Shown: positions 8,208-33,198 of the stretch, piece after piece
Numbering within the stretch: the first letter of the stretch is position 1
How the letters are laid out: every line of letters begins with the position of its first letter
IMG/VR virus record: IMGVR_UViG_3300037419_002305
Span: 1 to 41,043 of that record
Source: a virus
Taxonomy: Duplodnaviria > Caudoviricetes
Reading direction: 5' to 3' (one strand)
Length of the DNA stretch: 41,043 nucleotides
Program-made: the position numbers and the translations under genes
Notes under the pieces: model-generated
What the model saw: only the letters and a program-made list of their open reading frames with translations
What the model was told of the DNA's origin: nothing
Database searches by the model: none

Positions 8208-8280
8208 GATGATGAACCCAGCTTTGGAATATCTATTGAGCTTTTCTTGCGTCGCACACTTCAACACCTTGTTCATTATG
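8208..8280 (-). repeat. dispersed cassette-end repeat, left-type copy 1
   Basis: gatgatg-aacccagc...cta...ttgcgtcgcacac; reverse-complement core GTGTGCGACGCAAG. Confidence 0.8.
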
Positions 8281-8336
8281 GAGCCATGTTCCCGGTTCGT
8301 GAACAGCAATATAAAATGAACTAAACTCAAACAAAA

Positions 8337-8534
8337 ATGTATATACCGCCCACAGGAAATAAAATCTGTTTTGCCCCTTGCCCGGAGGGAGTTCCTTGCG
8401 AGTGTAGGGCCAGAATATTAGTTGACATAATGAAGTGCGATGAACAATTGGGTCTATACGATTTGCCCAGTAGCGATCAGAACCTTGAAGAGAGTGACAC
8501 AACGGAAGATGCTAGTAGCAGTGTAGCTGGATAA
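8337..8534 (+). CDS. small Cys-rich hypothetical protein (cassette cargo)
   Basis: A-rich start; C-terminus SDQNLEESDTTED encoded by the repeat. Confidence 0.5.
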   Translation: MYIPPTGNKICFAPCPEGVPCECRARILVDIMKCDEQLGLYDLPSSDQNLEESDTTEDASSSVAG

Positions 8535-8535
8535 C
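8471..8535 (+). repeat. dispersed cassette-end repeat, right-type copy 2
   Basis: tagcgatcagaac...gagagtgacacaac...tagtag...gctggataac. Confidence 0.85.
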
Positions 8536-8627
8536 AAATCATTGTGGCAGGCCGCCACTCCTATGAACCACCAACCCGCACCCTGAAGAAATTTTTTAAT
8601 CCGTACTCCTATATTAAATCTAATACT

Positions 8628-8921
8628 ATGGGAGACACTATTCAATTAGGGCGGGCGCAGATGGACGTACTGCTGCTCACCGCAGAGGGGCTAACCTCAA
8701 AACAGATTGCCCAAAAAAAGGGCATCAGCCAAAAGACCGTAGAAGCCGAAAAGTACACGGTTTTAAAAAAGTTTGGGGCCAAAAGCATGGTGCAGGCCGT
8801 GATCCTGGCCTTTAAAATGGGGATGATCGAACACCCCGAAGCCTTCACCAAAATGCCGAAAACCAAGAGCATTAAATACCTAAAAGACGGCAAGATCGCT
8901 CGAAAAACAATCATCATTTAA
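8628..8921 (+). CDS. LuxR/GerE-type HTH regulator
   Basis: VLLLTAEGLTSKQIAQKKGISQKTVE...KKFGAKS pattern; ATG 8628. Confidence 0.8.
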   Translation: MGDTIQLGRAQMDVLLLTAEGLTSKQIAQKKGISQKTVEAEKYTVLKKFGAKSMVQAVILAFKMGMIEHPEAFTKMPKTKSIKYLKDGKIARKTIII

Positions 8922-8932
8922 AATCTGACCCT

Positions 8933-9499
8933 ATGGCAAACTTCTTAGATGCGTACAAAGTAGTAATGGGCAACGAAGGCGGGTATGCGAACGATTCGCA
9001 GGACAGCGGGGGCGAAACCTACAAAGGAATTTCCCGCAACAACTTCCCCGACTGGCGCGGCTGGAAGATCGTAGATCGCTACAAAGGCAAATGGAACTTT
9101 TCAGCCCTGCTTTCCCAAGACATGGATTTGGAAGCCGCAGTACAGGAATTCTACAAAGCAGCGTTTTGGGACGCCCTGTCTTTGGACTATGTAAAAGACT
9201 ACCGACTGGCCCTTGAACTATTTGATACGGCGGTGAATTGCGGGGTAAAGACTTCCGGCCGCTTTGCCCAAATAGCCCTCAATGTGCTAAACAACAACCA
9301 AAAACTATACTTAGACATTGAAGAAGACGGCATTATTGGCCCTCAAACCCTTCGGCTGATAAACAACCACACCAAACCCGCGGCGCTCTTAAAAGTGCTC
9401 AATGTGCTTCAGGGGGCACGGTATATAGAGATTTCCAAAAGCAACCACACACAAGAGAAATTCATGAATGCCTGGCTGTCCAGGGTATCGCTCAACTAA
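8933..9499 (+). CDS. endolysin, GH108 lysozyme with peptidoglycan-binding domain
   Basis: EGGYAND..D.GGET.KGI motif; FDTAVNCG; DGIIGPQT; C-terminal F..AW..R. Confidence 0.9.
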   Translation: MANFLDAYKVVMGNEGGYANDSQDSGGETYKGISRNNFPDWRGWKIVDRYKGKWNFSALLSQDMDLEAAVQEFYKAAFWDALSLDYVKDYRLALELFDTAVNCGVKTSGRFAQIALNVLNNNQKLYLDIEEDGIIGPQTLRLINNHTKPAALLKVLNVLQGARYIEISKSNHTQEKFMNAWLSRVSLN

Positions 9500-9509
9500 C
9501 TAAATCCTT

Positions 9510-10508
9510 ATGAGTTTAAAAACCCAAACCGCTAAACAGTATCGTGCCCGTTACCCTGAGAAGCCTACACTTGCACTAGCCCGCATTCTTTACCAAGAAA
9601 ACCGCCTGCTGTTTAAAGACGTGGAAGCCGCCCGTTCCATCCTTCGTTATATCGAAGGGAAGGCAGGGGCGCTGAGAAGAAAATCCGTCAAAGATAGCGA
9701 GTTTTTGCGCTCCGACCCGCGCCCTTACAACCCCTATAACCTGCCCGAAAGCCACCAACAGGAACGCACCCCCTATAAACTGCCCACGGCGTGTAATAAC
9801 GTGCTGTTGATTTCCGATCTGCACATTCCCTACCATGACATTCACGCTATCACCATCGCTTTGGATTATGGCAAAAAACATAAAGTCAACACCATTTTTA
9901 TCAACGGTGATTTGATCGATAACCACCAGGTCAGCCGCTTTGAACGGGATCCTAAAAAACGAAGCGTGAAGCAGGAGTTCGATGCCACCAAAGAGTTTTT
10001 ACGGGTGCTTAGAAAAACCTTCCCTAAAGCATCTATTTACTGGCTCAAAGGCAACCACTGCATAAGGTGGGAAAAGTTTCTTTTGCAAAAGGCCTCGGAA
10101 ATCTGGGACGATGACTATTTCCATTTAGAACAACGCCTGCGCCTCTCGGAAGAAAGGGTTACGCTGCTGGATGACAAGACCCTGGTTAAGATCGGTAAGC
10201 TTTCGGTGACCCACGGCCACCTGATATTTAAGGGAGTTTTTACCCCGGTCAACCCTTCCCGGGGAGCGTTTTTAAGGGCCAAGCAAAGCGTGCTGGTGGG
10301 GCATTTGCACCGGGCTTCCCACCACCCGGAAATCACGATGGACGGGGACACGATCTCGTGCTGGTCGGTGGGTTGCCTGGCAGAATTAAAACCCGATTAT
10401 TCGCCTTTGGTTAGTAACTGCCAGCATGGTTTTGCCCATATCATAGTGGAGCCGAACGGGGATTACCAGGTTAAAAATTATCAGATCATCCGGGGTAAAA
10501 TCTACTAA
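9510..10508 (+). CDS. calcineurin-like metallophosphoesterase
   Basis: SDLH, NGDLID, GNH, HGH, GHLH motifs in canonical order. Confidence 0.88.
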   Translation: MSLKTQTAKQYRARYPEKPTLALARILYQENRLLFKDVEAARSILRYIEGKAGALRRKSVKDSEFLRSDPRPYNPYNLPESHQQERTPYKLPTACNNVLLISDLHIPYHDIHAITIALDYGKKHKVNTIFINGDLIDNHQVSRFERDPKKRSVKQEFDATKEFLRVLRKTFPKASIYWLKGNHCIRWEKFLLQKASEIWDDDYFHLEQRLRLSEERVTLLDDKTLVKIGKLSVTHGHLIFKGVFTPVNPSRGAFLRAKQSVLVGHLHRASHHPEITMDGDTISCWSVGCLAELKPDYSPLVSNCQHGFAHIIVEPNGDYQVKNYQIIRGKIY

Positions 10509-10509
10509 C

Positions 10510-10710
10510 ATGAATATCCTTACAAAAATCGAAGAACTCTATGAAGAGGGAACCCGATCCAAAGAAGAACGAAGAAAACCCTTCCCGGGGCTACCCAACT
10601 ATTTTGAAGCCGTGTACCCGGAAGATTATAGAAGAACTGATGGGAAAAAAGTTGAGGCTGGAAAGGGATCTACAGGAAGTGACAAGGGAACTGAGACGGA
10701 TAATCTATGA
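10510..10710 (+). CDS. hypothetical protein
   Basis: ORF directly after the phosphoesterase; ends at a repeat copy. Confidence 0.4.
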   Translation: MNILTKIEELYEEGTRSKEERRKPFPGLPNYFEAVYPEDYRRTDGKKVEAGKGSTGSDKGTETDNL

Positions 10711-10780
10711 ATTATGAGCCAGGAGTCCACCGATCTATTAAGCCCAGTTGCGTCGCACTCGTGTACGCCTTGTAATTCTA
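10710..10780 (-). repeat. dispersed cassette-end repeat, left-type copy 3 (no partner seen)
   Basis: attatg-agccagg...cta...gttgcgtcgcactc...gtaattcta. Confidence 0.85.
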
Positions 10781-10850
10781 TTGAGCAATAAGGCTCAAAC
10801 AGTTCTTTGACATATTGGAAGGAATGTTGCAAAAAAAAGTTGTAAAAATA

Positions 10851-10882
10851 TTTGGTGTAACTAAAAAGTTACACTATCTTTG
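10851..10882 (+). promoter_or_regulatory. Bacteroidota sigma-A promoter with palindromic operator as spacer
   Basis: TTTG-N20-TATCTTTG; the spacer is gtgtaact-aaaa-agttacac. Confidence 0.8.
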
Positions 10883-10892
10883 ATGTATTAAA

Positions 10893-11141
10893 ATGAACAA
10901 GATGGCAACTCAAACATTTCCACAATTAGGTGATACACTTAAAGTAAGACTATTTACCTATAAGTCACGTCGCCATTACGGCGGCAGGGATGTGACCACA
11001 TTCCCACATATATGCAATGCTAAGTTTTTGTATCAGCAAACGCAATGGTCATTTGTAGTTGAACTTCTTGAACCATGTGCGGCATTCCCGGCAGGACACA
11101 AGATTGCAGTTATAGAAAAGGATTTTAATATTACAGAATGA
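10893..11141 (+). CDS. hypothetical protein
   Basis: First ORF after the promoter; lower-GC region. Confidence 0.6.
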   Translation: MNKMATQTFPQLGDTLKVRLFTYKSRRHYGGRDVTTFPHICNAKFLYQQTQWSFVVELLEPCAAFPAGHKIAVIEKDFNITE

Positions 11142-11317
11142 TTTGGAATTACATAAAGGCAGATAGCTTTTTTCGGGACTATCTGCCTCAAATCAAAAGC
11201 TATAAGCATAAAATAAGGGGCAAGAACGGCAGGGGTAATCCTGTTGATTTTTCACCAGAAGAAAGGAAGGAAATAAAACGAGCATTACGGAAATTAATGA
11301 AGGACATAGGCAGCTAA
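11138..11317 (+). CDS. small basic DNA-binding protein (DUF5053-like), not in ORF track
   Basis: 59 aa, ATGA overlap; KIRGKNGRGNPVDFSPEERKEIKRAL resembles the DUF5053 C-terminal pattern as recalled. Confidence 0.55.
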   Translation: MIWNYIKADSFFRDYLPQIKSYKHKIRGKNGRGNPVDFSPEERKEIKRALRKLMKDIGS

Positions 11318-11365
11318 ATAACCCCCCTATCTTCATACATAGTTTTTCATAGGATAAAACAACCC

Positions 11366-11602
11366 ATGACTATGACAGAAAGAAAGCAACTGAAAAAGCA
11401 GCTATCCAAGCTAAAGGCCTATAAAAGGAATTTGCCCCGGCTGATTGACTGTTCTACAGTGTACGGGGATGAAGTTTTTACCCAAAAGGATTATGCCTTA
11501 GTTGATGAACGGATAAAAGACATAGAAAACAAAATCGCAGCCATCGATGAAAACAAAGAACCTGCCTCAAAAGCCTATGACCATGTAGGCTGCGCTAAAT
11601 AA
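11366..11602 (+). CDS. hypothetical protein
   Basis: ORF with A-rich start. Confidence 0.55.
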   Translation: MTMTERKQLKKQLSKLKAYKRNLPRLIDCSTVYGDEVFTQKDYALVDERIKDIENKIAAIDENKEPASKAYDHVGCAK

Positions 11603-11611
11603 ATAAAAGTT

Positions 11612-11785: not shown

Positions 11786-11838
11786 AGAACCTTCGCCCCC
11801 TTGGTTTTTCATAGGATATTGGACCCTGGGAAAAAGGA

Positions 11839-12154: not shown

Positions 12155-12162
12155 TTTCTATT

Positions 12163-13401
12163 ATGCCATCCTTTATTTTAGACCGCCCATCCTGTAAAGA
12201 AGCTACCTATATCATGCTGCACCTACGTTGCGCAGACGGTGTGTTTCGTCGCTCGATCAAAGAAAAAATCCACCCGACCCGCTGGGACTTCCAAACCCAA
12301 CGCCCGGTGATCTGGGATAAAAAAGACAAGCTGCAGGCCGCTCAACTCATTAAGGTCAATAAGATCTTTGAAGGGTTTACCGATTTAAAACTGTCGGCCA
12401 CCCTGTCGGGAGAACCCCTTACTAAACAAAGGGCCGAAGAAACCTTAAACCGCCTTTTGGGTGTCCCGGAAAAGACCGCTGTTAGCTTTGAGGAAGGCTC
12501 CCAAGTCATTTTAGAGGAAATGCGCTCTGGTGCGCTTCTGACTCCCAAAGGAAAACGCTACGCCGAGTGGTCCATCAAGCAACACAACCTGACCCGCAAC
12601 AACCTGTTAAAGTTTCAGAAGGCCAAACGGGTCTCTATAGAATTTAAGGACGTAACCATTCTTACCTATTATAAATTCATTGAGTATTGCAATGAGCAGA
12701 ATTGGGCCTTAAACTCAGTGGGCACGTATATCAAAAACTGGCGGCAGTTCCTAATGAGGGGCCACGAAAAAGGCTGGCATAAAAACCAGATCCACGAACA
12801 CAAAGACTTTAAAATCCTTTCAGAAGAAACCTACGACATTTATTTAACCCAACAGGAGCTTAAAAAAATAATCAAGGCCAAGCACTCCGGGGAAAGACAG
12901 ATAGCCAGGGATTGGTTTTTGATCGGCTGTTATACCGCACTGCGCATCTCGGATTTAAAGGTTTTAGACGAGCGTAAAGTTTTCGGGGATTTTTTGGTGC
13001 TGACAACGGAAAAAACAGATGAACGGGTAGAAATTCCCGTACACCCCACGGTGAAAAGCATTATCCAACGCTACAAAGGGTTTCCTCCGGCTATGTCGGA
13101 CGTAGACATTAACCGGGAAATCAAAGAAGTGGCAAAACAGGCCGGCATTAAAGAAAAGGTGCTGTACTCTGTAACCGAAGGCGGGGTACGAAAGGATTAC
13201 TGGCTGGAAAAGTGGCAGATGGTCTCGCTGCATACCGCCCGCCGTACCATGATTACCAATGCCCGGCTGATGCAAATGCCCGATTCCGTGGTCATGAAGC
13301 TGGCCGGCATCCGCTCCATTAAGACCCTGCTGCGCTACGACAAGCTCTCCCAAAGCCAGGCGGCCCACATAGCGGCGGCCCATTCGTTTTTCAAGGGGTA
13401 A
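12163..13401 (+). CDS. int: tyrosine integrase
   Basis: TALRISD, K, HTARRT and C-terminal Y (LLRYDK); arm-binding and SAM-like N-terminal regions; 412 aa. Confidence 0.95.
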   Translation: MPSFILDRPSCKEATYIMLHLRCADGVFRRSIKEKIHPTRWDFQTQRPVIWDKKDKLQAAQLIKVNKIFEGFTDLKLSATLSGEPLTKQRAEETLNRLLGVPEKTAVSFEEGSQVILEEMRSGALLTPKGKRYAEWSIKQHNLTRNNLLKFQKAKRVSIEFKDVTILTYYKFIEYCNEQNWALNSVGTYIKNWRQFLMRGHEKGWHKNQIHEHKDFKILSEETYDIYLTQQELKKIIKAKHSGERQIARDWFLIGCYTALRISDLKVLDERKVFGDFLVLTTEKTDERVEIPVHPTVKSIIQRYKGFPPAMSDVDINREIKEVAKQAGIKEKVLYSVTEGGVRKDYWLEKWQMVSLHTARRTMITNARLMQMPDSVVMKLAGIRSIKTLLRYDKLSQSQAAHIAAAHSFFKG

Positions 13402-17927: not shown

Positions 17928-18065
17928 ATGAAAGCTTTGGACCCTACAGAACACCTGGATATAGAAGTAAGAGAAAGTGGCTTTGAAGATATCGGCTTTG
18001 ATGAGTGGGAGAAAGATGTTATACCAACGGATGCAGAAGGTATTGAGGATGAAGAGATGATGTAG
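17928..18065 (+). CDS. highly acidic 45-aa protein, not in ORF track
   Basis: MKALDPTEHLDIEVRESGFEDIGFDEWEKDVIPTDAEGIEDEEMM*; 17 D/E. Confidence 0.55.
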   Translation: MKALDPTEHLDIEVRESGFEDIGFDEWEKDVIPTDAEGIEDEEMM

Positions 18066-18126
18066 CCAGCAGCAGTGCTACTAGCATCGCCTGTTGTGTC
18101 ACTCCCTTGTGCGTTCAGTAATTCTA
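18056..18126 (-). repeat. dispersed cassette-end repeat, left-type copy 4
   Basis: gatgatg-tagccagc...ctactag...gttgtgtcactccc...gtaattcta. Confidence 0.88.
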
Positions 18127-18148
18127 TTAAACAAATAAAACCAACAAC

Positions 18149-18718
18149 ATGAACCAGCTTTTTTCAGACAGCGAAACCTTTCAGAAAGAAAGGCCAACTA
18201 AACCCAGCGAAGTGCAAAAGGTAAAGTTTTACAATGACATGGCACAAGAGGTAATTGATAACGGATGGTCGAGTGATAGCGTGTCAGATATAGCAAACGA
18301 TTTGGAAGAACTATATCCTTTTTACGGTAACGGGTACGACTTGGCAAAGAATCTAGAGAAGGGGTATAGAAACCAAGCCAGTTATGATATTGACCCTTCT
18401 TTCTGTGAATGGCTTGACAACCTCGATTATGAGTATAGAAGATTGGTAGAAGAAAATGTACGCACATGGGTAAAGGCGCACAACCCGCAACCAAAATATA
18501 AGGTTGGAGAGTCGGTTGTATTGAGCAAAAACCTAAACCGTGAAATGAACGCCGGTCAAACTTTTTATATCACAGGACTTCAGCCAGAAGAAGCCAACTA
18601 TTTGGTCTGGAAGGATAAAAAACACAATGGAGGGTGTGTCATTGCTTACGAAAGGTTAGAAGATGCTGTGCTGATTAGCGATCAGAACCCTGCAGTGAGT
18701 GACACAACGAAAGCCTAA
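18149..18718 (+). CDS. hypothetical protein (cassette cargo)
   Basis: 189 aa; ends SDQNPAVSDTTKA inside the repeat. Confidence 0.7.
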   Translation: MNQLFSDSETFQKERPTKPSEVQKVKFYNDMAQEVIDNGWSSDSVSDIANDLEELYPFYGNGYDLAKNLEKGYRNQASYDIDPSFCEWLDNLDYEYRRLVEENVRTWVKAHNPQPKYKVGESVVLSKNLNREMNAGQTFYITGLQPEEANYLVWKDKKHNGGCVIAYERLEDAVLISDQNPAVSDTTKA

Positions 18719-18740
18719 TAGTAGTACAACCGCTAAGTAC
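18676..18740 (+). repeat. dispersed cassette-end repeat, right-type copy 5
   Basis: tagcgatcagaac...gtgagtgacacaac...atagtag...gctaagtac. Confidence 0.88.
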
Positions 18741-18868: not shown

Positions 18869-19078
18869 ATGTCACGTTGGAGCGAACAAATCTTACATCA
18901 GGCAGAAATCGACGCCGAATTTGACAGGGGCCAAAGCTGTGCCCGTCTTCGTAAAAGGATAGAAAATGATATGTGGAGGTATCACGAAGAACTTGAACAG
19001 CAGGAGGAAGAAACCCCCATTTTCCGCCTTCAGGACGGAACCTTAATCGACGGTGAACAAACTTTAAAAACAGCGTAA
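18869..19078 (+). CDS. hypothetical protein
   Basis: A-rich start; TAATG coupling to bet. Confidence 0.6.
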   Translation: MSRWSEQILHQAEIDAEFDRGQSCARLRKRIENDMWRYHEELEQQEEETPIFRLQDGTLIDGEQTLKTA

Positions 19079-19899
19079 TGAATAATCAATTAATCAAAGC
19101 ATCGGAATACACGCCCGACCAAATAGCCCTAATAAAGTCACAGATTGCCCCTAAAGCCAACAAAGACGAACTGGCGTATTTCATGCAACAGTGCCTTAGA
19201 ACGCAATTAGACCCCTTTTCCAAGCAGATTTACGCCATCCATCGGTGGAACTCACAGCAGGGTAAAGAGGTCATGTCGATACAGGTATCCATCGACGGTT
19301 TTCGGGTCATTGCCCAACGCAGCGAACTGTATGCCGGTCAGGGCGAACCCGAATACCTGGAAAAGGACAATAAGCTGGATTGCTGCAAGGTACGGGTCTA
19401 TAAGTTTTCTCCTAAAGGGGAACGCTATGAAGCGGCGGTAGGGGTGGCCTACTGGAATGAGTACGTACAAACCACAAAGGATGGTAAACCCTCCGGCCTG
19501 TGGGCTAAAATGCCTCATGTGATGCTGGCAAAGGTGGCCGAAGCGGTGGCGCTGCGTAAAGCCTTCCCCCACGATTTAAGCGGCCTGTATACTTCTGAAG
19601 AAATGCAACAGGCAGATACTCCAACGGTGGAAACCAACTATACGGAAATAAAAGAAGAGCTAAAGGAAGAAATAGACAATTCAGACAGGGCGTTGCTTTT
19701 TGTTCTACTTAGTAGCTCAACGCTGACGGAAGGCACAGAGGAATATAGAAAAGCCTGGAACTGGATTGACACTTGCCCCAACTATAAGAAGTACGAAAAG
19801 ATAAAAGCCCGTTTGGAAGAATTGCAACCCTCTATCCATGAGATTCAAAATCCTTCCCAAAAGGACATAAACCAACATTTAAAAGCTGTTCAATCCTAA
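19078..19899 (+). CDS. bet: Bet/RecT-family single-strand annealing protein
   Basis: LDPFSKQIY, SIDGFRVIA, W.KMP.VML.K.AE..ALRKAFP..LSGLY..EEM. Confidence 0.9.
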   Translation: MNNQLIKASEYTPDQIALIKSQIAPKANKDELAYFMQQCLRTQLDPFSKQIYAIHRWNSQQGKEVMSIQVSIDGFRVIAQRSELYAGQGEPEYLEKDNKLDCCKVRVYKFSPKGERYEAAVGVAYWNEYVQTTKDGKPSGLWAKMPHVMLAKVAEAVALRKAFPHDLSGLYTSEEMQQADTPTVETNYTEIKEELKEEIDNSDRALLFVLLSSSTLTEGTEEYRKAWNWIDTCPNYKKYEKIKARLEELQPSIHEIQNPSQKDINQHLKAVQS

Positions 19900-19903: not shown

Positions 19904-20104
19904 ATGATAGCTGTAAACACACCCGACCAGGCAGAGATCAACGCCCACTTGTGCAGTGAGTTAAAAAGGCTCAGGGAAGAAAACATTCTTTTAAAAGGGG
20001 AATTAATTGGCACTTTGGAAGGCATTCTACTCTATGAAGATAAACTACCCCTCTCGGTAGTGGAGCTAAAAAAACAACGCTTACAGGAGTTAAAAGCAAA
20101 GTGA
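19904..20104 (+). CDS. hypothetical coiled-coil protein
   Basis: ORF in operon. Confidence 0.5.
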   Translation: MIAVNTPDQAEINAHLCSELKRLREENILLKGELIGTLEGILLYEDKLPLSVVELKKQRLQELKAK

Positions 20105-20556
20105 TGAAAACCGTGATCAAACATAGCGGCTGGTTCAAATCAGGCAAACTGCACCTGTCCAACAGGGCAAGGTTTGAAGGGGAATGTAAAGCCTTTCCCG
20201 ATTGTGATGTGGAGGTGATCGTAAAAAAGAAGGGAAAGGCTTCCTCCCAATCAAGACGGTATTATTTCGGGGTCATTGTCCGGGAAATCACCGATGAACT
20301 AAGGCGGCTGGGTAACAAGGTAGACGAAGAGTTGGTACACGAACTCTTAAAGCTGGAGTGCAATAAACAATACCTACGAAATGAAGACGGCGTAGTGATT
20401 GGAGAAGTGGGAGGTACGACCACCGACCACAACCCCGAAGAGCGCAGCGAATTTTTAGAGGCCTGTATCCAGTATGCAGCGGAAAAATTAGGGCTGGCTA
20501 TTTCACCGCCCAACACCCAAGCCAGTTTGTTTAACGAAAAAAATAAAGCAGCATGA
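20101..20556 (+). CDS. NinB/Orf-like recombination protein
   Basis: S.Q.RRYYFGVI...VHELLK...TT....E.SEFLE pattern; near bet. Confidence 0.6.
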   Translation: MMKTVIKHSGWFKSGKLHLSNRARFEGECKAFPDCDVEVIVKKKGKASSQSRRYYFGVIVREITDELRRLGNKVDEELVHELLKLECNKQYLRNEDGVVIGEVGGTTTDHNPEERSEFLEACIQYAAEKLGLAISPPNTQASLFNEKNKAA

Positions 20557-20984
20557 ACAGAGAAATAAAATTCAGGATTTGGAACCGGGATGCAGAACAA
20601 TGGTATGAACCCGTATTTGAAGCATATAAGGGGCTGTTGTTTGAACTACTCTTAACTACATCCGGTGAGTTATGCGAAAGAAGTATGCAAGGCTTTACGC
20701 ATGAATCCAGGTTCCCTGGTAAGTATGTTATTCAGCAGTACACCGGCTTAAAGGATAAGAACGGAAAAGAAATCTACGAGGGGGATATACTTAGCGTTGA
20801 TGTAGAAACAGAGACCGAAAAAATGACTATGCAAGACGATTACCTGTTGGCAGTTGTTAAGTGGAACCATGCAGGATTTTGGGCTTCTGTTGAAACCGAT
20901 GAGGGGGAAGCTCTGACCGAAATAGACCATGACACTATTGTTATCGGCAATATCTATGAAAACCCTGAACTGCTTGCTGAATAG
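20553..20984 (+). CDS. yopX: YopX family protein
   Basis: REIKFRIW, QYTGLKDKNGKEIYEGDI, VIGNIYENPELL. Confidence 0.92.
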   Translation: MNREIKFRIWNRDAEQWYEPVFEAYKGLLFELLLTTSGELCERSMQGFTHESRFPGKYVIQQYTGLKDKNGKEIYEGDILSVDVETETEKMTMQDDYLLAVVKWNHAGFWASVETDEGEALTEIDHDTIVIGNIYENPELLAE

Positions 20985-21046
20985 CGATCCAGCCGATGCA
21001 GTGTGCGACGCAACGAAAGCCCCATAGTCATTCCAAAGCTCAGTAC
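20982..21046 (+). repeat. dispersed cassette-end repeat, right-type copy 6 (no partner seen)
   Basis: tagcgatcc...gtgtgcgacgcaac...atagtca...gctcagtac; its TAG is the YopX stop. Confidence 0.85.
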
Positions 21047-21429: not shown

Positions 21430-23640
21430 GTGGACTATCAGGACTTTTTAAGAACGAAAGTAAAAGCGCACCAGGCATCAGGATTTGACGCAGAGGAAGC
21501 CGGATTGAACCAAAACCTATTTCCCTTTCAAAAATATATTGTACGCACCGCCCTGAAAGCGGGCCGCTATGCCATCTTTGCCGATTGCGGGCTGGGTAAA
21601 ACCCTGATGCAACTGGAATGGGCGCACCAGGTTGTAAATCATACCGGGAAATCTGTTTTAATCTTAGCGCCTTTAGCCGTATCAGGTCAAACCATCCAGG
21701 AAGGAAAGAAGTTTGGAATCGAGGTTTTAAAATACGAACACTGCCTGGATAATCTACAGGACGAAGGAATCTTTATTACCAACTACGAACAATTAGACAA
21801 TATTGATTGCAGCATTTTCGGCGGCGTAGTCTTGGATGAATCGTCCATCCTAAAAAACTTTGAAGGGGCATTAAGAAATCAGATCATTGACAAATTCCAA
21901 AACACACCCTACAAGCTGGCCTGTACCGCCACACCTTCCCCTAACGACCCGATGGAATTGGGAAACCATGCAGAGTTTTTAAACGTCATGTCCCGCTCGG
22001 AAATGCTCTCCATGTACTTTGTCCATGATGGGGGCGAAACGTCCAAATGGAGGCTAAAGGGCCATTCTACGGATCGTTTCTGGCAGTTTGTGGCTTCCTG
22101 GGCTGTTATGGTTTCCCGGCCTTCTGATTTAGGCTACTGTAATGAGGGTTACTGCCTGCCGGAATTAAACTACCTGGAACATCAGATCGTAACCGAAAAA
22201 CGCAATAACGGGCTTTTATTTAACGATGTGGCTATTTCGGCCACCAACTTCAACCAGGAACTACGGCAAACCAGGGAGCATAGGCTAAACAAGGTGGTTG
22301 AAATCGTTCGTCAAACCGAAGGGCAAATCCTTATCTGGATCAAACAAAACGAGGAAGGCGAGTATTTAAAAAAGCTGATCCCTGAAGCCATCGAGGTAAA
22401 AGGATCGGACAGTCCCGAATACAAGGAAAAACACCTTTTGGGGTTTGCCAATAATGAATTTCGGGTACTCATCACAAAGGCCAAGATTGCCCAATTTGGC
22501 CTGAACTATCAAAACTGCCACAATCAAATCTTCGCCTCCCTTGACTTCTCCTTTGAAGCCCTCTATCAATCCATCCGCAGGTCGTACCGTTTCGGCCAGA
22601 CAAAGCCGGTAAACATTCACTTAATCACTACGGACACCATGCAAAACGTCCGGCAGTCCATTCGGCAAAAACAAGCCGGGTTTGAAGAAATGCAAAATCA
22701 AATGCAGCGCAATATGAACAACTGTTTTGAACGGGAAGTAAGCAGCGCCCTCTACGAGCGGGGCCACCAGGTAAAGATGGAAAACTACTGGATCATGCGG
22801 GGGGACTGTGTGCAGCGTATCCAGGAAATCAAATCCGAATCCGTGGGCCTGTCGGTATTCTCCCCACCCTTTGCGGAACTCTATACCTACTCGGATCACC
22901 TGGAGGATATGGGCAATTCCAAAGATTACTCGGAGTTTTTGACGGCCTTTAATTTTTTGGTCAGTGAACTGTACCGGATCATGTGGAGTGGCCGCAATGT
23001 CGTGGTGCATTGCATGGATCTTCCCATCCAAAAGGGAAAGGAAGGATTTATAGGACTGAGGGATTTTTCGGGCATGATCCGGGAAGCCTTTGAGGGCGTG
23101 GGCTTTATTTATCATTCCAGGGTAACGATTTGGAAAGACCCGGTAGTGGAAATGCAGCGCACCAAAGCCTTGGGCCTTTTGCACAAGCAAGTAAAAAAAG
23201 ATGCCGCCATGTCCAGGGTAGGACTGCCTGACTATCTGATGGTCTTTCGTAAGCCCGGCGAACACCTGCACCCCGTTCACTGCAATATCCCGGTGGATTT
23301 GTGGCAAAAATACGCTTCGCCGGTATGGTACGACATTAACTATTCCAACACCCTAAACGGTAGGGAAGGCCGCAGTGAAAGGGATGAAAAGCACATCTGC
23401 CCTTTACAACTCGAAACCATTGAACGGGCCATCCATCTGTGGAGCAACGAAGGGGACGCTGTTTTTACCCCGTTTATGGGAATTGGCTCAGAGGTATTCC
23501 AGGCCATCAAAATGAAGCGTTTTGGGATTGGAGTGGAGCTAAAGGAGTCCTATTACAAGGTAGCGGTAAAGAACTGCAAAGCAGCCACGGAATCCAATAA
23601 GCAGATTTTATTAACGGACATTTTTAAACAGGCCGTATGA
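21430..23640 (+). CDS. SNF2-like helicase fused to N4C/N6A DNA methyltransferase
   Basis: GLGKT, LDESS, TATP, Q..RR.YRFGQ; then SPPF and PFMGIGS in beta-class order. Confidence 0.9.
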   Translation: MDYQDFLRTKVKAHQASGFDAEEAGLNQNLFPFQKYIVRTALKAGRYAIFADCGLGKTLMQLEWAHQVVNHTGKSVLILAPLAVSGQTIQEGKKFGIEVLKYEHCLDNLQDEGIFITNYEQLDNIDCSIFGGVVLDESSILKNFEGALRNQIIDKFQNTPYKLACTATPSPNDPMELGNHAEFLNVMSRSEMLSMYFVHDGGETSKWRLKGHSTDRFWQFVASWAVMVSRPSDLGYCNEGYCLPELNYLEHQIVTEKRNNGLLFNDVAISATNFNQELRQTREHRLNKVVEIVRQTEGQILIWIKQNEEGEYLKKLIPEAIEVKGSDSPEYKEKHLLGFANNEFRVLITKAKIAQFGLNYQNCHNQIFASLDFSFEALYQSIRRSYRFGQTKPVNIHLITTDTMQNVRQSIRQKQAGFEEMQNQMQRNMNNCFEREVSSALYERGHQVKMENYWIMRGDCVQRIQEIKSESVGLSVFSPPFAELYTYSDHLEDMGNSKDYSEFLTAFNFLVSELYRIMWSGRNVVVHCMDLPIQKGKEGFIGLRDFSGMIREAFEGVGFIYHSRVTIWKDPVVEMQRTKALGLLHKQVKKDAAMSRVGLPDYLMVFRKPGEHLHPVHCNIPVDLWQKYASPVWYDINYSNTLNGREGRSERDEKHICPLQLETIERAIHLWSNEGDAVFTPFMGIGSEVFQAIKMKRFGIGVELKESYYKVAVKNCKAATESNKQILLTDIFKQAV

Positions 23641-24005
23641 GTAAGAACTGCCCTTCCTGGTGCCCCTTTAAAAACGGGTATTGCAGAAACCACTTAGGCT
23701 ACTCAGTACCCAAAGCAAAGGAAATTAACAAGGTATCGGATAAAAAAAAGGAACTGGACAAAGAGTACCAAAAGGTACGAAAGGCCTTTTTAGCTGACCA
23801 TCCCTTCTGCATGGCAAAGCTGGAAGGCTGCAAGGGGAAAGCCAGCCAGGTACACCACATGCGGGGCAAGGTGGGGAGTGAGGATTACTTAAATAAAAAG
23901 TTCTTTTTGGCGGTATGTCCGGTGTGTCACGAAATCATTGAGCGCAACCCCGCCTTTGCCCGGCAGAATGGCTTTAGTGTTTCACGCCTAAATAAAAGTA
24001 TATGA
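23637..24005 (+). CDS. HNH-like endonuclease
   Basis: C.....C......VHH...LAVCPVCH pattern. Confidence 0.65.
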   Translation: MSKNCPSWCPFKNGYCRNHLGYSVPKAKEINKVSDKKKELDKEYQKVRKAFLADHPFCMAKLEGCKGKASQVHHMRGKVGSEDYLNKKFFLAVCPVCHEIIERNPAFARQNGFSVSRLNKSI

Positions 24006-24295
24006 CCCTTAATCTTTCAGAACCGAAGTATTACTATAAGGATGGTTTCTACTGGATGGTAACAGAGTCTTCTTTAGTCCAGTTTACCGACTGCTTTTTT
24101 AATGAATGGAAGATAGGAACAGAGCTGTACTACTATAAAAGAAGGGAGTTAAGCCAGTTAAAGCCTATTAATTATTCTTTGGGGGAGGAGGTGAAACAAA
24201 AATTAGTGCGTAGGATTATGGCCCCGGCTAATAGCCCTGATTTGGCTTTGGTTGCGTCGCACTCGTTAACTGCAACAAGTCTACTCGACAAATAA
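24002..24295 (+). CDS. hypothetical protein reading through a repeat copy
   Basis: ATGA coupling; C-terminal LVASHS derives from the repeat. Confidence 0.5.
   Translation: MTLNLSEPKYYYKDGFYWMVTESSLVQFTDCFFNEWKIGTELYYYKRRELSQLKPINYSLGEEVKQKLVRRIMAPANSPDLALVASHSLTATSLLDK
24214..24283 (-). repeat. dispersed cassette-end repeat, left-type copy 7 (diverged)
   Basis: gattatg-gccccggc...ggttgcgtcgcactcg...tcta. Confidence 0.75.
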
Positions 24296-24310: not shown

Positions 24311-24544
24311 ATGAAATACGTAGTAAGAACAATTGTACTTCCCTTTATTGCCACCGCCGCCTTTGTCGGCGCCTTAAGGTTATGGCTGGTACTGTGTAAA
24401 AACTTTATGCTCTACGGGGGAGAGATCGTAACCTTCACTAAGAACCATTCCCCCACCACGATTGTGGATCTGCTCAACTTTTTAAAAGATAAGCTGAGTA
24501 GCGATCAGAACGTACAAGGGAGTGACACAACCGGGGCTTCATAG
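24311..24544 (+). CDS. small membrane protein (cassette cargo)
   Basis: Hydrophobic N-terminus; ends SDQNVQGSDTTGAS in the repeat. Confidence 0.6.
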   Translation: MKYVVRTIVLPFIATAAFVGALRLWLVLCKNFMLYGGEIVTFTKNHSPTTIVDLLNFLKDKLSSDQNVQGSDTTGAS

Positions 24545-24563
24545 TAATTCAAAAGCTGATAAC
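24499..24563 (+). repeat. dispersed cassette-end repeat, right-type copy 8
   Basis: tagcgatcagaacgtacaagggagtgacacaac...atagta...gctgataac. Confidence 0.88.
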
Positions 24564-28251: not shown

Positions 28252-28638
28252 ATGAAACTAACCGACCTGGAAAAACTAAAACAAAAAGGGCTGATTCGAG
28301 GCTTTGAACAGACCGGGAAAGCGGAAAATCGCAATAAGTACGGGGCCAAAAAAACGCAAGTGGACGGCGTAGTGTTTGACAGCCAACGGGAGGCGAATAG
28401 GTATATCCAGCTTCGCTACCTGTTGACTTTAGGGGAGATAAGAGAGTTGAACTTACAGGTCGCCTTTGAACTCAATGAGGGCGGCACCCACTCTCTTAGG
28501 TATGTAGCGGATTTTACCTACTACACCAAAGACGGGGAATACGTAGTGGAAGATTCCAAAGGATTTCGCACCAAGGAGTACCGCAAAAAACGAAAGCTAA
28601 TGAAGGAAGTTTTAGGAATTGAGGTTCGGGAGGTGTAG
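28252..28638 (+). CDS. DUF1064 family PD-(D/E)XK nuclease
   Basis: NKYGAKKT.VDG..FDS..EA.RY, YVADF.Y, VVEDSKG. Confidence 0.88.
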   Translation: MKLTDLEKLKQKGLIRGFEQTGKAENRNKYGAKKTQVDGVVFDSQREANRYIQLRYLLTLGEIRELNLQVAFELNEGGTHSLRYVADFTYYTKDGEYVVEDSKGFRTKEYRKKRKLMKEVLGIEVREV

Positions 28639-28753: not shown

Positions 28754-29191
28754 ATGAAACTAACAACTACTGAATTAATCGGTATACTGGAACAAAAGCC
28801 AGTCTTAGCCCATGAAATGGAAATTAAAGAAGTATTCGCCCTGCTTGGCTTTAAGTTAAAAGAATACTACAAAGCGGCTTTAAGTGCCTTTCAATCTTAC
28901 GAAGTGCATTATCGAAGAACGTATCTGGTAAAGGTGCAGGTGGATGATAGCCGGTGCTTGTCCCTGTCCAATGAGTATATAGACTTTGGCGAGGGTTGCC
29001 ACGGTGTAAGTTATGGTGGAGTGGGTACAGTTAAGGAACTGCTGCAAACGGTCATTTTGATGGCGCAGCAACTACGCAGTGATTACCGGGGCGTGGCCTA
29101 TTTCAATGAAGAAGAAAGCGAATATACCGAATCGGAATACCGGGAACTAATTGAAACGTTGAACGAAAAGCTGTTTGAAGAAGCTCAATAG
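28754..29191 (+). CDS. hypothetical protein
   Basis: Stop codon is the TAG of a repeat copy. Confidence 0.65.
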   Translation: MKLTTTELIGILEQKPVLAHEMEIKEVFALLGFKLKEYYKAALSAFQSYEVHYRRTYLVKVQVDDSRCLSLSNEYIDFGEGCHGVSYGGVGTVKELLQTVILMAQQLRSDYRGVAYFNEEESEYTESEYRELIETLNEKLFEEAQ

Positions 29192-29254
29192 CGATCCAAA
29201 AGTACAAGTGTGCGACGCAAGGGACGCTTCATAGTAGCACCCAAGGCTCAGTAC
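29189..29254 (+). repeat. dispersed cassette-end repeat, right-type copy 9 (no partner seen)
   Basis: tagcgatcc...caagtgtgcgacgcaag...atagtag...gctcagtac. Confidence 0.85.
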
Positions 29255-29752: not shown

Positions 29753-30053
29753 GAAAACAACCGATATAAACGAACAGCCTGCACGGGTTTTCTCAATTAA
29801 ACATAAGAAATCTGGCTGCCTGCACAAGACCGTCACTTTGGACATGGAAAGCCGTCAGGTAATCTGCGACCAGTGCGAGCGGATGATCGACCCTTTTGAT
29901 TTTTTATTCAGTAATGCCGTGGAAGAAAGCTCCGCCCTTGCCTGTTTTATGCACCTTCTAAGGGAAAAACAAAAATTGGAAGCCGAAGTCTCGCGTCTTA
30001 AAAAGCAAAAAGTATTTCTCACCTCTCAAAAAAGCAAGCACAATGGACACTAA
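29745..30053 (+). CDS. hypothetical protein with Zn-ribbon (CxxC) and coiled coil
   Basis: CLH...VICDQCERMIDPFD. Confidence 0.65.
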   Translation: MDKKTTDINEQPARVFSIKHKKSGCLHKTVTLDMESRQVICDQCERMIDPFDFLFSNAVEESSALACFMHLLREKQKLEAEVSRLKKQKVFLTSQKSKHNGH

Positions 30054-30690
30054 AGCAATCCAACAGTTAGCCGAACAACTGGCTAAGGAACAATTTCCCG
30101 ATGATACCTGGGGACGAAAGGTATGGTCTGACGGGTTTGAGGCCGGAGCCGCCGCTGCCTCCCCCGTCAAAAATGTAGAAGTTGACAAAGAAAAGAAGAA
30201 ATGGTCATTCGAATCCAAGATAGAACCCGTAGCTGATACAGGCGACTATGATAGTTATGTTCGCTTTACCAATGGTTATGAATGTCTACAAACGGATGGA
30301 TATAACCTTACAGACGATCAATGTAAGCAATTCTGTGAGCTATTGAATTTAATGCCGGATTTATGGTCGCATCGTTTGGATGCAACCGAATGGGAATTAT
30401 CGCAATTAAAACAACAGTTAGCCGCTAAGGAGGAAGCCCCGGCCCCGCAAGCTATCCCCTCCGCAGGAGTTAAAGAGAAACTTGTAAACTATGGGGAAAA
30501 GAGAAATGTAGTTGTTGAAAGCGCAGACAAAGATGTAATTATTTGTATAGATAAATCAACAAATGAAGGCTTTATCCTTATGTATCATGGTCTGAAAGTT
30601 CTGCCAAAAGCGGGGGATAAAGGAACAATCGTTTTTGAGCGGGACAATAGGAAAGGACACTGGCAGTATTATTCAAAAACATCAAAATAA
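30043..30690 (+). CDS. mosaic hypothetical protein
   Basis: Segments joined by the EEAPAPQAIP linker. Confidence 0.6.
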   Translation: MDTKAIQQLAEQLAKEQFPDDTWGRKVWSDGFEAGAAAASPVKNVEVDKEKKKWSFESKIEPVADTGDYDSYVRFTNGYECLQTDGYNLTDDQCKQFCELLNLMPDLWSHRLDATEWELSQLKQQLAAKEEAPAPQAIPSAGVKEKLVNYGEKRNVVVESADKDVIICIDKSTNEGFILMYHGLKVLPKAGDKGTIVFERDNRKGHWQYYSKTSK

Positions 30691-30696
30691 ACCAAT

Positions 30697-31548
30697 ATGT
30701 TACAACCTAAAGATCGTGCGGAATATAACAGACAGCAAAAGCTAAAGGAGGCACCTTGCTACCGGGTAATTGCAGATTATCCCGATAACAAAGATTTCCC
30801 TGTCGGCAAAATCGTAACATTTAGACGGTGGAACAACAGTACCATTTATTGGGAACACGTTGTAAAAGATTGTCAGGGAGAAAGAAGTTGGCTATCTGGT
30901 TGGTTTGACCAATACCCCCACATTTTCCAGAAAATCAATGAGGAAGCCCCGCAAGCTATCCCCCAAACCGATGTGGAAGGCTACGATAAGGACGTAGAAA
31001 AAAGGCTACTCTCTATGATGGAGGAAAAGCCGCAAAGGTTACTGATGTACTTCTTATCCATCGTAGGCAGGGAGATTGTCAAAATCAATGCAACTGATTT
31101 AGAGTTAAGTCAGCACATGGATATTGAGGGCAGTCGGTATAAGGTAAAAGCCGAATGTTCAATTGAACCATTAGCCAGCCTAAGAGGAAAAGAGGAGGGG
31201 GAGCTACAACCCTGTTGCGCCAATTCCTGCGATGGATTTAAGTGCGAAAGCGGAAGTGTTCACTTAATTGATAACCCAAACAAAGAAGAAAGGGATTATG
31301 TAGCCAGCGACAACAATTCTAATGGAACTGCGGTTGCGTCGCACACTGCATCGTCCGGTAATTCTATGGAGCAATACTTAAAGCGGCGAATAAAGGAATT
31401 AAACGAGGCTGATGCCAAATTCTGCCATGACCGTTGGGATAACCCGGCAGCGGATTCTTTTTTAAAAATGCTTTCGAGAGAAGAAAGCAACAAGGTCACA
31501 TTTGCCCGGCAGGAATTAGAAACAGTTTTAAAAATGCTTAATCAATAA
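30697..31548 (+). CDS. mosaic hypothetical protein, probable fusion through a repeat copy
   Basis: EEAPQAIP linker; repeat in frame at 31294-31366; in-frame ATG at 31366. Confidence 0.6.
   Translation: MLQPKDRAEYNRQQKLKEAPCYRVIADYPDNKDFPVGKIVTFRRWNNSTIYWEHVVKDCQGERSWLSGWFDQYPHIFQKINEEAPQAIPQTDVEGYDKDVEKRLLSMMEEKPQRLLMYFLSIVGREIVKINATDLELSQHMDIEGSRYKVKAECSIEPLASLRGKEEGELQPCCANSCDGFKCESGSVHLIDNPNKEERDYVASDNNSNGTAVASHTASSGNSMEQYLKRRIKELNEADAKFCHDRWDNPAADSFLKMLSREESNKVTFARQELETVLKMLNQ
31294..31366 (-). repeat. dispersed cassette-end repeat, left-type copy 10
   Basis: gattatg-tagccagc...cta...ggttgcgtcgcacac...gtaattcta. Confidence 0.85.
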
Positions 31549-31568
31549 TAAAATAAAACAGTCCATAA

Positions 31569-31844
31569 ATGAGCAAACAATACCAATACGTAAAAGTGGC
31601 CGTGGATCGCCGGGATTACTTAGGCGAAAAGTATTTCCGCTTCAATTTCAATGAAGATACCGTTGTGCAGGTGTGTATGAATCCCGGCTCCATTACCCGA
31701 CGGGGGAAATCAAATATCATCGGTGTATATGTGATTTCCAAAATGACCTTATTGGCAAATTACTTAGGGATGTCGTATGTAGAGCAATGCACCAAAGAGG
31801 AATTTGATAGCAAGTTTAATGAGGTTGTAAACTTTTTAAAATAG
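31569..31844 (+). CDS. hypothetical protein
   Basis: A-rich start. Confidence 0.6.
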   Translation: MSKQYQYVKVAVDRRDYLGEKYFRFNFNEDTVVQVCMNPGSITRRGKSNIIGVYVISKMTLLANYLGMSYVEQCTKEEFDSKFNEVVNFLK

Positions 31845-31868
31845 TCACCAATAAAAATCAAAATAAAC

Positions 31869-32141
31869 ATGGGAGATTTCAGAATCATCATTGATGCCGT
31901 TGGCGGTCACGGTCAAGACCGGAAAAAGAAAGACGGCGAGACAGTAAACTTTGCAGAAGGTGGTGCCTCAGCCCCCGAAGTCATTGCAAAGGCTTTGGTT
32001 TCTGCTCTATTGGGGTCGGGCTGTTCCGTTCAATCAGCCAAAGTAATTCACTGGCCGGCAGATAATTACCCTGAAAGCCGGGATGCTGAAAAGCAGATTG
32101 TAGACGACCTATTAACCGGTAAAAGAAAAGGGAATTTCTAA
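31869..32141 (+). CDS. hypothetical protein
   Basis: A-rich start; MGDFRI.I.AVGGHG. Confidence 0.65.
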   Translation: MGDFRIIIDAVGGHGQDRKKKDGETVNFAEGGASAPEVIAKALVSALLGSGCSVQSAKVIHWPADNYPESRDAEKQIVDDLLTGKRKGNF

Positions 32142-32314
32142 TGCAGACAACCTATCCTATCGGGGGCTATGCCCCCGGTAATTACCAAAACAAATGCTGC
32201 ACTTGTGGGGAACTCTTTATTGGTGATAAAAGAGCCGTACAGTGTGAACCCTGCGCGACTAAGATGATAAGCGATAAGGACGTACAAGAGAGTGACACAA
32301 CGAAAGCCCCATAG
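32141..32314 (+). CDS. small Zn-binding protein (57 aa), not in ORF track
   Basis: GYAPGNY...CCTC...F.GDKRA..C..CA; TAATG coupling; ends SDKDVQESDTTKAP in the repeat. Confidence 0.7.
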   Translation: MQTTYPIGGYAPGNYQNKCCTCGELFIGDKRAVQCEPCATKMISDKDVQESDTTKAP

Positions 32315-32333
32315 TAGCAGTGCAGCCGGTAAC
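32269..32333 (+). repeat. dispersed cassette-end repeat, right-type copy 11
   Basis: aagcgataaggacgtacaagagagtgacacaac...atagtag...gccggtaac. Confidence 0.85.
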
Positions 32334-32362
32334 CCAATTAAAAACCTAAAATAAAAAGAGCA

Positions 32363-32605
32363 ATGGAACCCTTAGAAAAGTCAATCAATCAAACCGACCA
32401 GGCAATTAACATGGTCAAACAAACCATAGAGATCGCCAATAGGTTAAAGGCAGAAAAAGAAGCGTTAAGGGCCGAGAACACCCGACTAAGGGAGGCGCTG
32501 CAATTTATTGCCAAAGATGATGATTGGCAGATATATGACGCCGTAGATGCCGACTTTAAGCTAATGAGAGAAATGGTTAAAGCCACCCTAAAATCAACCC
32601 TTTAA
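32363..32605 (+). CDS. hypothetical coiled-coil protein
   Basis: LRAENTRLREAL. Confidence 0.6.
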   Translation: MEPLEKSINQTDQAINMVKQTIEIANRLKAEKEALRAENTRLREALQFIAKDDDWQIYDAVDADFKLMREMVKATLKSTL

Positions 32606-32622
32606 ACTAAACTAAAAAGCAT

Positions 32623-32844
32623 ATGACTCAGGAAAAAACATGGCTCATTATCAACTTCTATCATGGCAATGCAATGATAGAAGCCACTTTAAATTATAAA
32701 ACAAAGGACTACTACCTAACCCACGGAAGCAACGACCGAAACGTAACCTTCGGCAACAATGGGGATGATATTCAATCCTCCCTTGACAGGGTCAAATGCG
32801 TGACCGCCGCCCTGAAATTCATTAAAGAGGAATTATTTGCTTAA
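32623..32844 (+). CDS. hypothetical protein
   Basis: A-rich start. Confidence 0.6.
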   Translation: MTQEKTWLIINFYHGNAMIEATLNYKTKDYYLTHGSNDRNVTFGNNGDDIQSSLDRVKCVTAALKFIKEELFA

Positions 32845-32877
32845 GTACCGAACCTATTAAACTAAAAAAACAAGTAT

Positions 32878-33156
32878 ATGGAAATAACAATTAGGAAGAA
32901 GCTCTGGCTTGCCTACCAGGACGTTTACTTAGATGAAAACACGAGAATCTCTTATGGATGGCATTTTTTAGAATTAGGTAACAGCTACCACCTCCAACGA
33001 AAAATCAACGGCAAATGGAGAAAGGTAGCCTGGACTTATTTTGGCGGAACTGTGGAAAGTATTTACGGCTATTTGCTTCAAAGAGAAAAAAAACACCAAA
33101 AACCAACATCAGCCTATAAAGGTCTGTCGATTAGAATTACCGAACGCCCCAAGTGA
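32878..33156 (+). CDS. hypothetical protein
   Basis: A-rich start; ends in a repeat copy. Confidence 0.55.
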   Translation: MEITIRKKLWLAYQDVYLDENTRISYGWHFLELGNSYHLQRKINGKWRKVAWTYFGGTVESIYGYLLQREKKHQKPTSAYKGLSIRITERPK

Positions 33157-33198
33157 GTGACACAACAGACGCTTAATAGAATTACCGAACCCTGATAC
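33132..33198 (+). repeat. dispersed cassette-end repeat, hybrid copy 12
   Basis: tagaattaccgaac...gtgagtgacacaac...tagaattaccgaac-cctgatac. Confidence 0.8.

Follow-up and report, generated by a model that had tools for sequence, protein, structure and literature searches.

The window considered here, i. e. the whole stretch of DNA that was analysed, comprises 41,043 nucleotides and is an entire 41-kb virus record (IMGVR_UViG_3300037419_002305; Caudoviricetes). Its genes include those for an integrase, RecT, a NinB-like protein, a resolvase, lysis proteins, terminase and portal, and the record is therefore read as a temperate phage. Confined to the region between 8.2 and 33.2 kb are 12 copies of a short non-coding repeat (0.48 per kb), which is the subject of this analysis. 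An initial annotation had described these copies as distinct left and right ends of non-autonomous cassettes that shuttle small genes and are mobilised in trans. The copies themselves were recovered at the places it gave: GWGYGACRCAAS has 12 exact matches in the window, five on the minus and seven on the plus strand, and a profile hidden Markov model (HMM) derived from 218 copies from the window, viruses and bacteria found the same 12 at E≤5 and added none. A mean of 1.26 matches to GWGYGACRCAAS is expected by chance, and 13 were reached in none of 100 shuffles. One further match with a single mismatch, at 12243 within the integrase gene, is not an element.

The element is polar and measures about 75-85 bp, and left and right copies, which can be aligned end to end, represent one element placed in opposite orientations, box1 being turned toward the cargo. 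Read on the core strand, box1 (GCTNAATAG-like) is followed by 10-11 variable bases, GTACAAG, the core WGYGACRCAAS, box2 (likewise GCTNAATAG-like), 10-12 variable bases, box3 and an A-tract. The core occurs as two alleles, A (AGTGACACAA) and B (TGCGACGCAA), and its central pair, located in a 7-bp palindrome, covaries in 239 of 241 copies, with no second covarying stem. The boxes recur at steps of about 20-24 bp, the outer terminus is variable, and the most conserved part lies some 40 bp inward. The end ATKATG-N2/3-CCRG is present in all five minus copies and GTAATTCTA in three of them, as initially annotated, while the inner TAGCGATC assigned to the plus copies is found in five of the seven. 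A difference between left and right tails holds within these phages. Nevertheless, the proposal of two separate families of ends had to be abandoned, since inner motifs, which occur in both orientations, and modules reassort freely; the modules are near linkage equilibrium over 189 copies, and the copies are patchworks.

Folding as DNA gave mean z-scores of +0.24 and +0.25 for the two strands (120 of 217 copies), which argues that the element has no hairpin; together with the lone covarying pair, this rules out a single-strand hairpin. The possibility of an Rfam regulatory RNA, raised at the outset, found no support in a search of the element at E≤1, which gave no match, and no RNA holder is listed for it. 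Between 17.5 and 33.5 kb there is no excess of promoter-like (23 vs 24.6 expected) or terminator-like sequences (21 vs 21.4 expected), and the Bacteroidota -7 box has no dominant position in 460 copies, the biggest pile comprising 8. In all seven plus copies, the element supplies the stop codon of the preceding gene, and called ORFs share sequence with two copies, namely 24214 (ORF 24002-24295) and 31294 (ORF 30697-31548). Several details of single copies were recorded in addition. The copy at 33126..33198 contains a perfect 14-bp direct repeat. In several genomes, other small repeats, mainly palindromes, are inserted in the core of the element at or near GTGA/GCGA (L387:2081-2300; L463:2916-2965; L089:1359-1428; L096:18716-18860). 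Some copies of the host genome G001 lie between imperfect 30-bp inverted arms beginning with TTATACT, and many have the outer arm alone (L086:7659, L103:12742, L103:17478, L116:16068 and others), which possibly represent a second, MITE-like family that received an insertion of the element.

Eight of the copies form the four inverted, inward-facing pairs seen in the initial annotation, enclosing 180, 537, 203 and 890 bp of small ORFs and combining B and A cores in three of four cases. Pair 1 consists of a B-core element at 8208..8284 (minus) and an A-core element at 8465..8535 (plus), both recognised by motif match, and its cargo is a 65-aa ORF without PHROG or Pfam match (8337..8534, plus) that runs through the right element. 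It is missing from two phage relatives, with imprecise boundaries. Just beyond it, at 8163-8195, a short inverted repeat followed by a T-run is probably a terminator and falls within the part missing from two relatives. Pair 2 has two A cores, at 18056..18132 (minus), to which other cargo is attached in relatives, and at 18670..18740 (plus; motif match), around an ORF of 189 aa (18149..18718, plus; PHROG 17597). Distant homologues of this cargo in other phages lack the element; some lie between sites that by eye are attC-like (L416:2060-2950) and others beside another small palindrome (L415:2500-2750), and this is a single accessory gene family in differing cassette contexts. In pair 3, the B-core left copy (24214..24289, minus) carries three differing cargoes among the compared phages, and the A-core right copy (24493..24563, plus) is absent in one relative, where the following A-tract stands without the element. 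The cargo in the window, a 77-aa ORF (24311..24544, plus), has no match and no relative among viral contigs. The left copy of pair 4 (B core, 31294..31372, minus) lies in frame within ORF 30697-31548, and the right copy (A core, 32263..32333, plus) has three differing upstream neighbours among the compared phages; between them, at 31373..32262 (plus), lie the end of this ORF and ORFs 31569-31844, 31869-32141 and 32141-32314.

The other four copies are solo in the window. These are a B-core element at 10710..10786 (minus), supported by the HMM and phage comparison, a B-core element at 20976..21046 (plus) that provides the stop codon of the YopX gene (20553..20984) and has three differing upstream neighbours among the compared phages, a B-core element at 29183..29254 (plus), and an A-core element at 33126..33198 (plus). 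The outer flank of the 29183 copy is joined to other upstream genes in relatives, in one of which box1 alone remains. A probable scar, without assigned strand and overlooked in the initial annotation, was recognised at 32839..32862 as a box1-like 9-mer, six bases and an inverted box1. It forms the left edge of ORF 32878-33156, which is absent in one relative; as a genome-wide scan for paired box1 scars gave chance level, it is the phage comparison that carries this reading.

Comparison of 45 distinct phage copies with full flanks, from which nine rows of a variant-core site were left out, reveals what changes around the element. Nine of 31 groups sharing an outer flank have two to three differing inner flanks, whereas none of the 43 inner-flank groups has differing outer flanks. 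Related phages thus differ in the cargo enclosed by common outer flanks, as the initial annotation had anticipated. A complete left-cargo-right slot is present at the 10710 site in two relatives, with both outer flanks in common and unrelated cargo. The switch points range from the inner end of the element to the core, several of them at the start of GTACAAG. In 15 swapped pairs, identity from box2 to box3 is 0.70-0.80 (background 0.30-0.52), while that of the inner third, 0.57-0.82, is closer to its background (0.43-0.75), so that the cargo often comes with a box1 of its own. Core type is consistent within seven of nine outer-flank groups. Of the block ends, 12 of 65 fall in elements, which make up 4.8% of the DNA (p 5e-5), and, counted from the inner end, 11 of these 12 lie between positions -6 and 29. 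In comparisons of junctions, the outer flank alone was kept in 10 cases, the inner alone in one and both in one (10 vs 1, p 0.012 for non-independent cases; seven sites vs one). Two comparisons place the outer junction exactly at the A-tract.

Further joints come from public contigs. Here, the 18056 copy is joined to the cargo of the 24214 site (18110->24274) in four of four runs, with a short side of only 22-28 bases, and in one run to the YopX leader (18108->20539), and ORF 31569-31844 is joined to the 29183 copy (31843->29181) in three of four runs with a side of 59. Cargo therefore moves between sites, with the reservation that 15 of 84 joints were viewed and that such joints may derive from other organisms. 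No clean-removal joint was found among the 15 of 84, nor for pair 1, for which all 2 joints were viewed.

A search of bacterial genomes, as had been suggested, identified the element mainly as an intergenic repeat of Chitinophagaceae chromosomes. A strict pattern matched 30 viral rows and about 2,200 stretches in a genome collection, with Bacteroidota, mostly Chitinophagaceae, in 78 of 80 listed titles. In a sample of this family, matches occur in 81 of 151 genomes, whose copy numbers run from 1 to 1,427 (median 13) and reach at least 100 in 15 genomes; cultured carriers include Foetidibacter luteolus and Lacibacter luteus; forward and reverse strands are equally represented, and a reversed-pattern control gave 0. 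Phylum-wide, 7 of 201 genomes match, six of which belong to the family sample. Copy numbers inside one genus extend from 11 (G020) and 39 (G151) to 1,408 (G001), i. e. about 100-fold, and the element reaches about one copy per 3.5 kb. Many of the chromosomal copies lie between housekeeping genes and within operons, and in 22 low-copy genomes (30 loci) the neighbours are ordinary genes. Host loci revealed neither a fixed orientation of copies relative to genes nor a difference in GC content between the two flanks (p 0.15). A replichore bias of copies in genome G097 was rejected as a listing artefact. Collections of isolate phages and plasmids gave just 1 and 2 short chance matches, respectively, a protein-based search of metagenome contigs gave nothing, and among 80 viral loci with the metallophosphoesterase of the window the element occurs in only three, all close relatives. 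By this distribution, the element is a host repeat that colonised this phage group. A needed role in the host is argued against by the 70 of 151 family genomes without match, by the lack of gene orientation and by the lack of a promoter or terminator excess.

The arrangement in pairs was assessed in 400 kb from three genomes around a ribosomal gene, a sample not selected for the element. Among neighbouring copies, 88 of 117 are inverted and 29 direct (p 4e-8), and pairs less than 1 kb apart have box1 inward in 22 of 27 cases. Inward-facing inverted pairing is thus non-random even in host chromosomes, and when close doublets are removed the remaining copies still alternate (49 vs 24). Loci selected for the element give the same picture with overlapping loci kept in; direct neighbours less than 1 kb apart amount to 0 of 39 in these loci and 1 of 29 in the 400-kb sample. 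Close inward pairs are of mixed A/B type in 23 of 40 cases, where 14.3 would be expected (p 0.007; six classes were tested), with no A/B excess in the other pair classes. The notion of two kinds of end therefore survives in the weak sense of two cores that are enriched together in close pairs. Partners of a pair are not more alike than other copies, and visual inspection of 33 doublets revealed no target duplication.

Related host genomes add a second view of the same process. Inward pairs enclose three features that set G001 apart from three congeners (about 76% identity): an inverted gene, an additional gene and a nested insertion of 9 kb; many of its copies nonetheless sit at collinear junctions. 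In three genomes of 87-94% identity, a copy present in one and absent in another belongs, in all cases viewed, to an exchanged block, which measures about 100-300 bp or more and includes additional bases to either side of the copy. A precise empty site was found neither in phage relatives nor in these congeners, where layered events may hide clean ends, and core-less 'empty' box sites amount to 1 of 68. An orthologous host trio (L440/L441/L442) retains the core together with the outer flank, with the inner third and the inner neighbour exchanged. Orthologous copies change in place in 10-30-bp patches, the outer two-thirds included, and in one such pair (L316 vs L460) an A core has become a B core in place. 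Moreover, 17 of 63 copies in G001 share their inner flank flush with another copy (26-186 bp) and 9 of 63 their outer flank (25-72 bp), from which it follows that copying carries flanks along. Other, unrelated repeat families occupy the same slots in congeners. One slot after a terminator holds a differing repeat family in each congener, namely GTAG-tagged hairpin doublets, heptamer arms, or the element with a cargo gene (L298-L300 vs L056:8040-10100).

The initial annotation saw no dedicated recombinase in the window. The phage does encode recombination proteins, i. e. a tyrosine integrase of 412 aa (12163..13401, plus; PHROG 216, PF13102), a RecT/Bet-like single-strand annealing protein (19078..19899, plus; PHROG 2780, PF03837), a NinB-like protein (20101..20556) and a Holliday-junction resolvase (28252..28638), the latter two assigned by PHROG/Pfam; none could be tied to the repeat. 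In hosts, tyrosine recombinases occur in all 24 genomes inspected, element-positive and element-negative alike, and no consistent bracketing of a tyrosine integrase by the element was found among the best 30 of about 190 matches, mostly XerC/D. A Pfam scan of 116 of 200 short host neighbours revealed no mobiliser, and no autonomous partner emerged from these 116 or from 951 clustered ORFs of 80 host loci. A symmetric crossover at the core palindrome was ruled out, as five copy-rich genomes contain no core junctions above control (0 left-left; right-right at 3 places vs 5 in the control). RAYT genes are present in 42 of 81 element-positive vs 25 of 70 element-negative genomes (p 0.05), and the RAYT query is unmatched in 7 of 15 genomes with at least 100 copies. 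RAYT loci have hairpin repeats of their own; L386, L387 and L394 have the element no more than 100 bp from the gene start, and L385 is bracketed by it at a distance. With a weak association, RAYT finds little support as the enzyme of the element. In the genomes of L387, L388, L390 and L169, RAYT and IS200-like genes are often duplicated in tandem, either whole or at the 3' end, along with their own repeats.

We favour, with an even chance, the view that the element is a non-autonomous host repeat which serves as portable homology for gene exchange, with the inverted pairs forming slots for swappable cargo. The pairs would be such slots rather than whole jumping units, because the outer neighbour stays while the inner one is replaced, and because there is neither target duplication nor a precise empty site; mobilisation of the cassettes as units, as initially proposed, is disfavoured on the same grounds. 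This view starts from one family of shared anatomy with either an A or a B core, from the over-representation of inward-facing and of mixed close pairs, from patchwork copies that are altered in place, and from cargo that differs between constant outer flanks with the switch between inner end and core. Exchange would then be guided by the approximately 20 bp most common to the copies and could be carried out by phage RecT and NinB or, in chromosomes, by the recombination of the host. Inverted pairs may persist since recombination between their members would not delete the cargo, and mixed A/B pairs may persist since they would pair more poorly with each other. New copies could be made in trans by a host enzyme, usually arriving with tens to hundreds of flanking bases. 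Red-type proteins reportedly recombine diverged sequences, and the RecT/Bet-like protein is a plausible candidate agent for exchange between diverged copies; the one-sided swap pattern does not need a phage, as it is also seen in the host trio.

Several points weigh against portable homology. Plain homologous recombination explains neither the inward-facing close pairs nor the origin of new copies. The asymmetry of nine outer-flank groups against none is partly expected, for the same cargo is seldom met again, with only 2 of 43 inner flanks seen twice, while sites of the backbone recur. Among the block ends located at junctions, 12 of 47 are in elements vs 22% expected (p 0.35). Contrary to what the cassette proposal implied, breakage in the phages is no more frequent at element junctions than at other junctions (11 of 12 vs 30 of 37; p 0.66), although strong mosaicism of the five relatives brings this test close to saturation; a hand tally of host synteny, with 14 of 26 element junctions broken vs 7 of 25 others (p 0.089), is counted on the same side. 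Furthermore, most sequences are metagenome assemblies, in which repeats can yield chimeras; no enzyme came to light, and exchange was never observed directly.

A possible, more tentative explanation is a dedicated cassette-exchange system, in which a host enzyme of the tyrosine recombinase or HUH type binds boxes and core and cuts in the inner third, and which phages borrow. A and B would be non-interchangeable sites, and an inverted A/B pair would allow replacement of the cargo, not its loss or inversion. Such an enzyme would better explain the strong polarity in phages and host trio and the A/B excess restricted to close inward pairs than portable homology does. The boxes at 20-24-bp steps and the covarying core pair are as expected of protein sites, and the switches at the start of GTACAAG, the core agreement within outer-flank groups and the 100-fold copy-number difference inside one genus fit as well. 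Yet, the switch points vary from inner end to core, the outer two-thirds are also changed in patches, and neither symmetric core-junction products above control in five copy-rich genomes, a consistently bracketed integrase among the best 30 of about 190 matches nor a mobiliser among the 116 scanned neighbours came to light, with RAYT only weakly associated. In its most far-reaching form, which is about as tentative, a genome-wide cassette exchange would operate in Chitinophagaceae, with cuts on the inner side of non-interchangeable A/B sites without hairpin and swaps of whatever an inverted A/B pair encloses, the sites numbering up to about 1,400 on a chromosome, while temperate phages would import the sites as slots for accessory genes. 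Engineered recombinase-mediated cassette exchange would then have a counterpart in nature.

It seems improbable that the element is a passive marker or a protein-binding site, for instance of a nucleoid or regulatory protein, that is retained or tolerated in permissive intergenic space while swaps occur at background rate by other means. The lack of a breakage excess, the many copies at collinear junctions inside operons, the occupation of the same slots by unrelated repeat families and the distant cargo homologues without the element would suit this explanation, which leaves unexplained the switch points within the element, the one-sided retention of flanks and the inward pairing, and which is not helped by the absence of a fixed gene orientation and of a promoter or terminator excess. 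Least credible is a non-autonomous transposon of the type of MITEs (miniature inverted-repeat transposable elements) or mobile insertion cassettes, with left end, cargo and right end cut and pasted at the outer ends by a transposase acting in trans: common inward doublets, often A/B, the G001 pairs around a gene that three congeners lack, around an inverted gene and around the 9-kb insertion, the missing pair 1 and the outer junctions at the A-tract speak for it, but 33 doublets without visible target duplication, a variable outer terminus with conservation 40 bp inside, replaced blocks instead of clean insertions, the lack of a clean-removal joint among those viewed and partners no more alike than other copies do not.

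High-copy repeats known from bacteria either form hairpins (REP, attC) or have transposon ends (MITEs). In MITEs and mobile insertion cassettes, which are non-autonomous, inverted ends surround replaceable cargo; the element differs by the absence of target duplication, conserved terminal bases and a precise empty site, and by many solo copies. In integrons, small genes ending in an attC site take their stop codon from it, and one side is fixed while the other is variable as at attI. The element likewise supplies stop codons and has one fixed and one variable side, but it lacks a single-strand hairpin and forms inverted rather than direct arrays, and no evident integron integrase was found nearby, the window integrase matching PF13102 and PHROG 216. 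The pdif sites of Acinetobacter alternate in orientation. A pdif site spans 28 bp, with a 6-bp centre between two 11-bp arms, and pairs of such sites flank accessory modules including toxin-antitoxin genes in one bacterial group (PMC6449649); in this respect the element is similar, whereas it measures 75-85 bp, shows no such dyad in column profile or covariation, has up to 1,400 chromosomal copies and switches at variable points. With REPINs and REP-BIMEs, short extragenic high-copy repeats served by RAYT (TnpA-REP) enzymes (PMC3116915, PMC6006769, PMC3733652), it shares the non-autonomous nature, enriched inverted doublets, patchy copy number between relatives and mosaic copies. In contrast to these, its single copies do not fold, its spacers range from 5 bp to kilobases and contain genes, its partners are not more alike, and the local RAYTs, with their own hairpin repeats, track it weakly. 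The promoter-early stem-loop (PeSL) cassettes of T4-type phages (PMC2839356) resemble it as dispersed repeats of phage accessory regions; their inter-copy recombination shuffles small genes and yields mini-circles, and a shuffling pattern is also seen with the element. They differ in that the element has neither promoter nor stem-loop, derives from host chromosomes and forms inverted pairs exchanging cargo.

Taken together, the element behaves like a REPIN or BIME at the population level and like PeSL or pdif in the phage, and it departs from each in a defining feature. Its mode of copying is not covered by described mechanisms, since it has neither hairpin nor transposon ends and yet is high-copy, 100-fold variable within a genus and paired with fixed polarity. 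It is apparently undescribed: no description was found in a chiefly open-access literature, where two core strings matched one unrelated plant paper only, and the atypical repeats beside Bacteroidetes RAYTs treated in PMC6006769 could bear on its novelty. In the phage, a long-standing idea, according to which modular exchange of genes is driven by short common linkers, finds a concrete and testable case, with linkers that are here host-derived. A dedicated enzyme, if real, would provide a new recombination tool and a route of gene flow between host chromosome and phage in an abundant soil and freshwater family.

A few minor observations concern the surroundings of the element. In the window, 21430-23640 encodes a 736-aa fusion of helicase-like and DNA methyltransferase-like parts (PHROG 16, 67). 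In one host genome (G147:C19:84311-89431; L282 and L294), two same-strand copies lie 2.1 kb apart, each after accessory genes resembling toxin-antitoxin pairs; downstream of each lies a urocanate hydratase-like gene start, the first of them a truncated duplicate. Finally, in 6 of 12 copy-rich genomes the element adjoins a CxxCxxCC gene beside a Xer-type recombinase gene, with the same bracketing in two (L356, L363, L368, L371, L372, L376), which suggests an old insertion or a hot spot.

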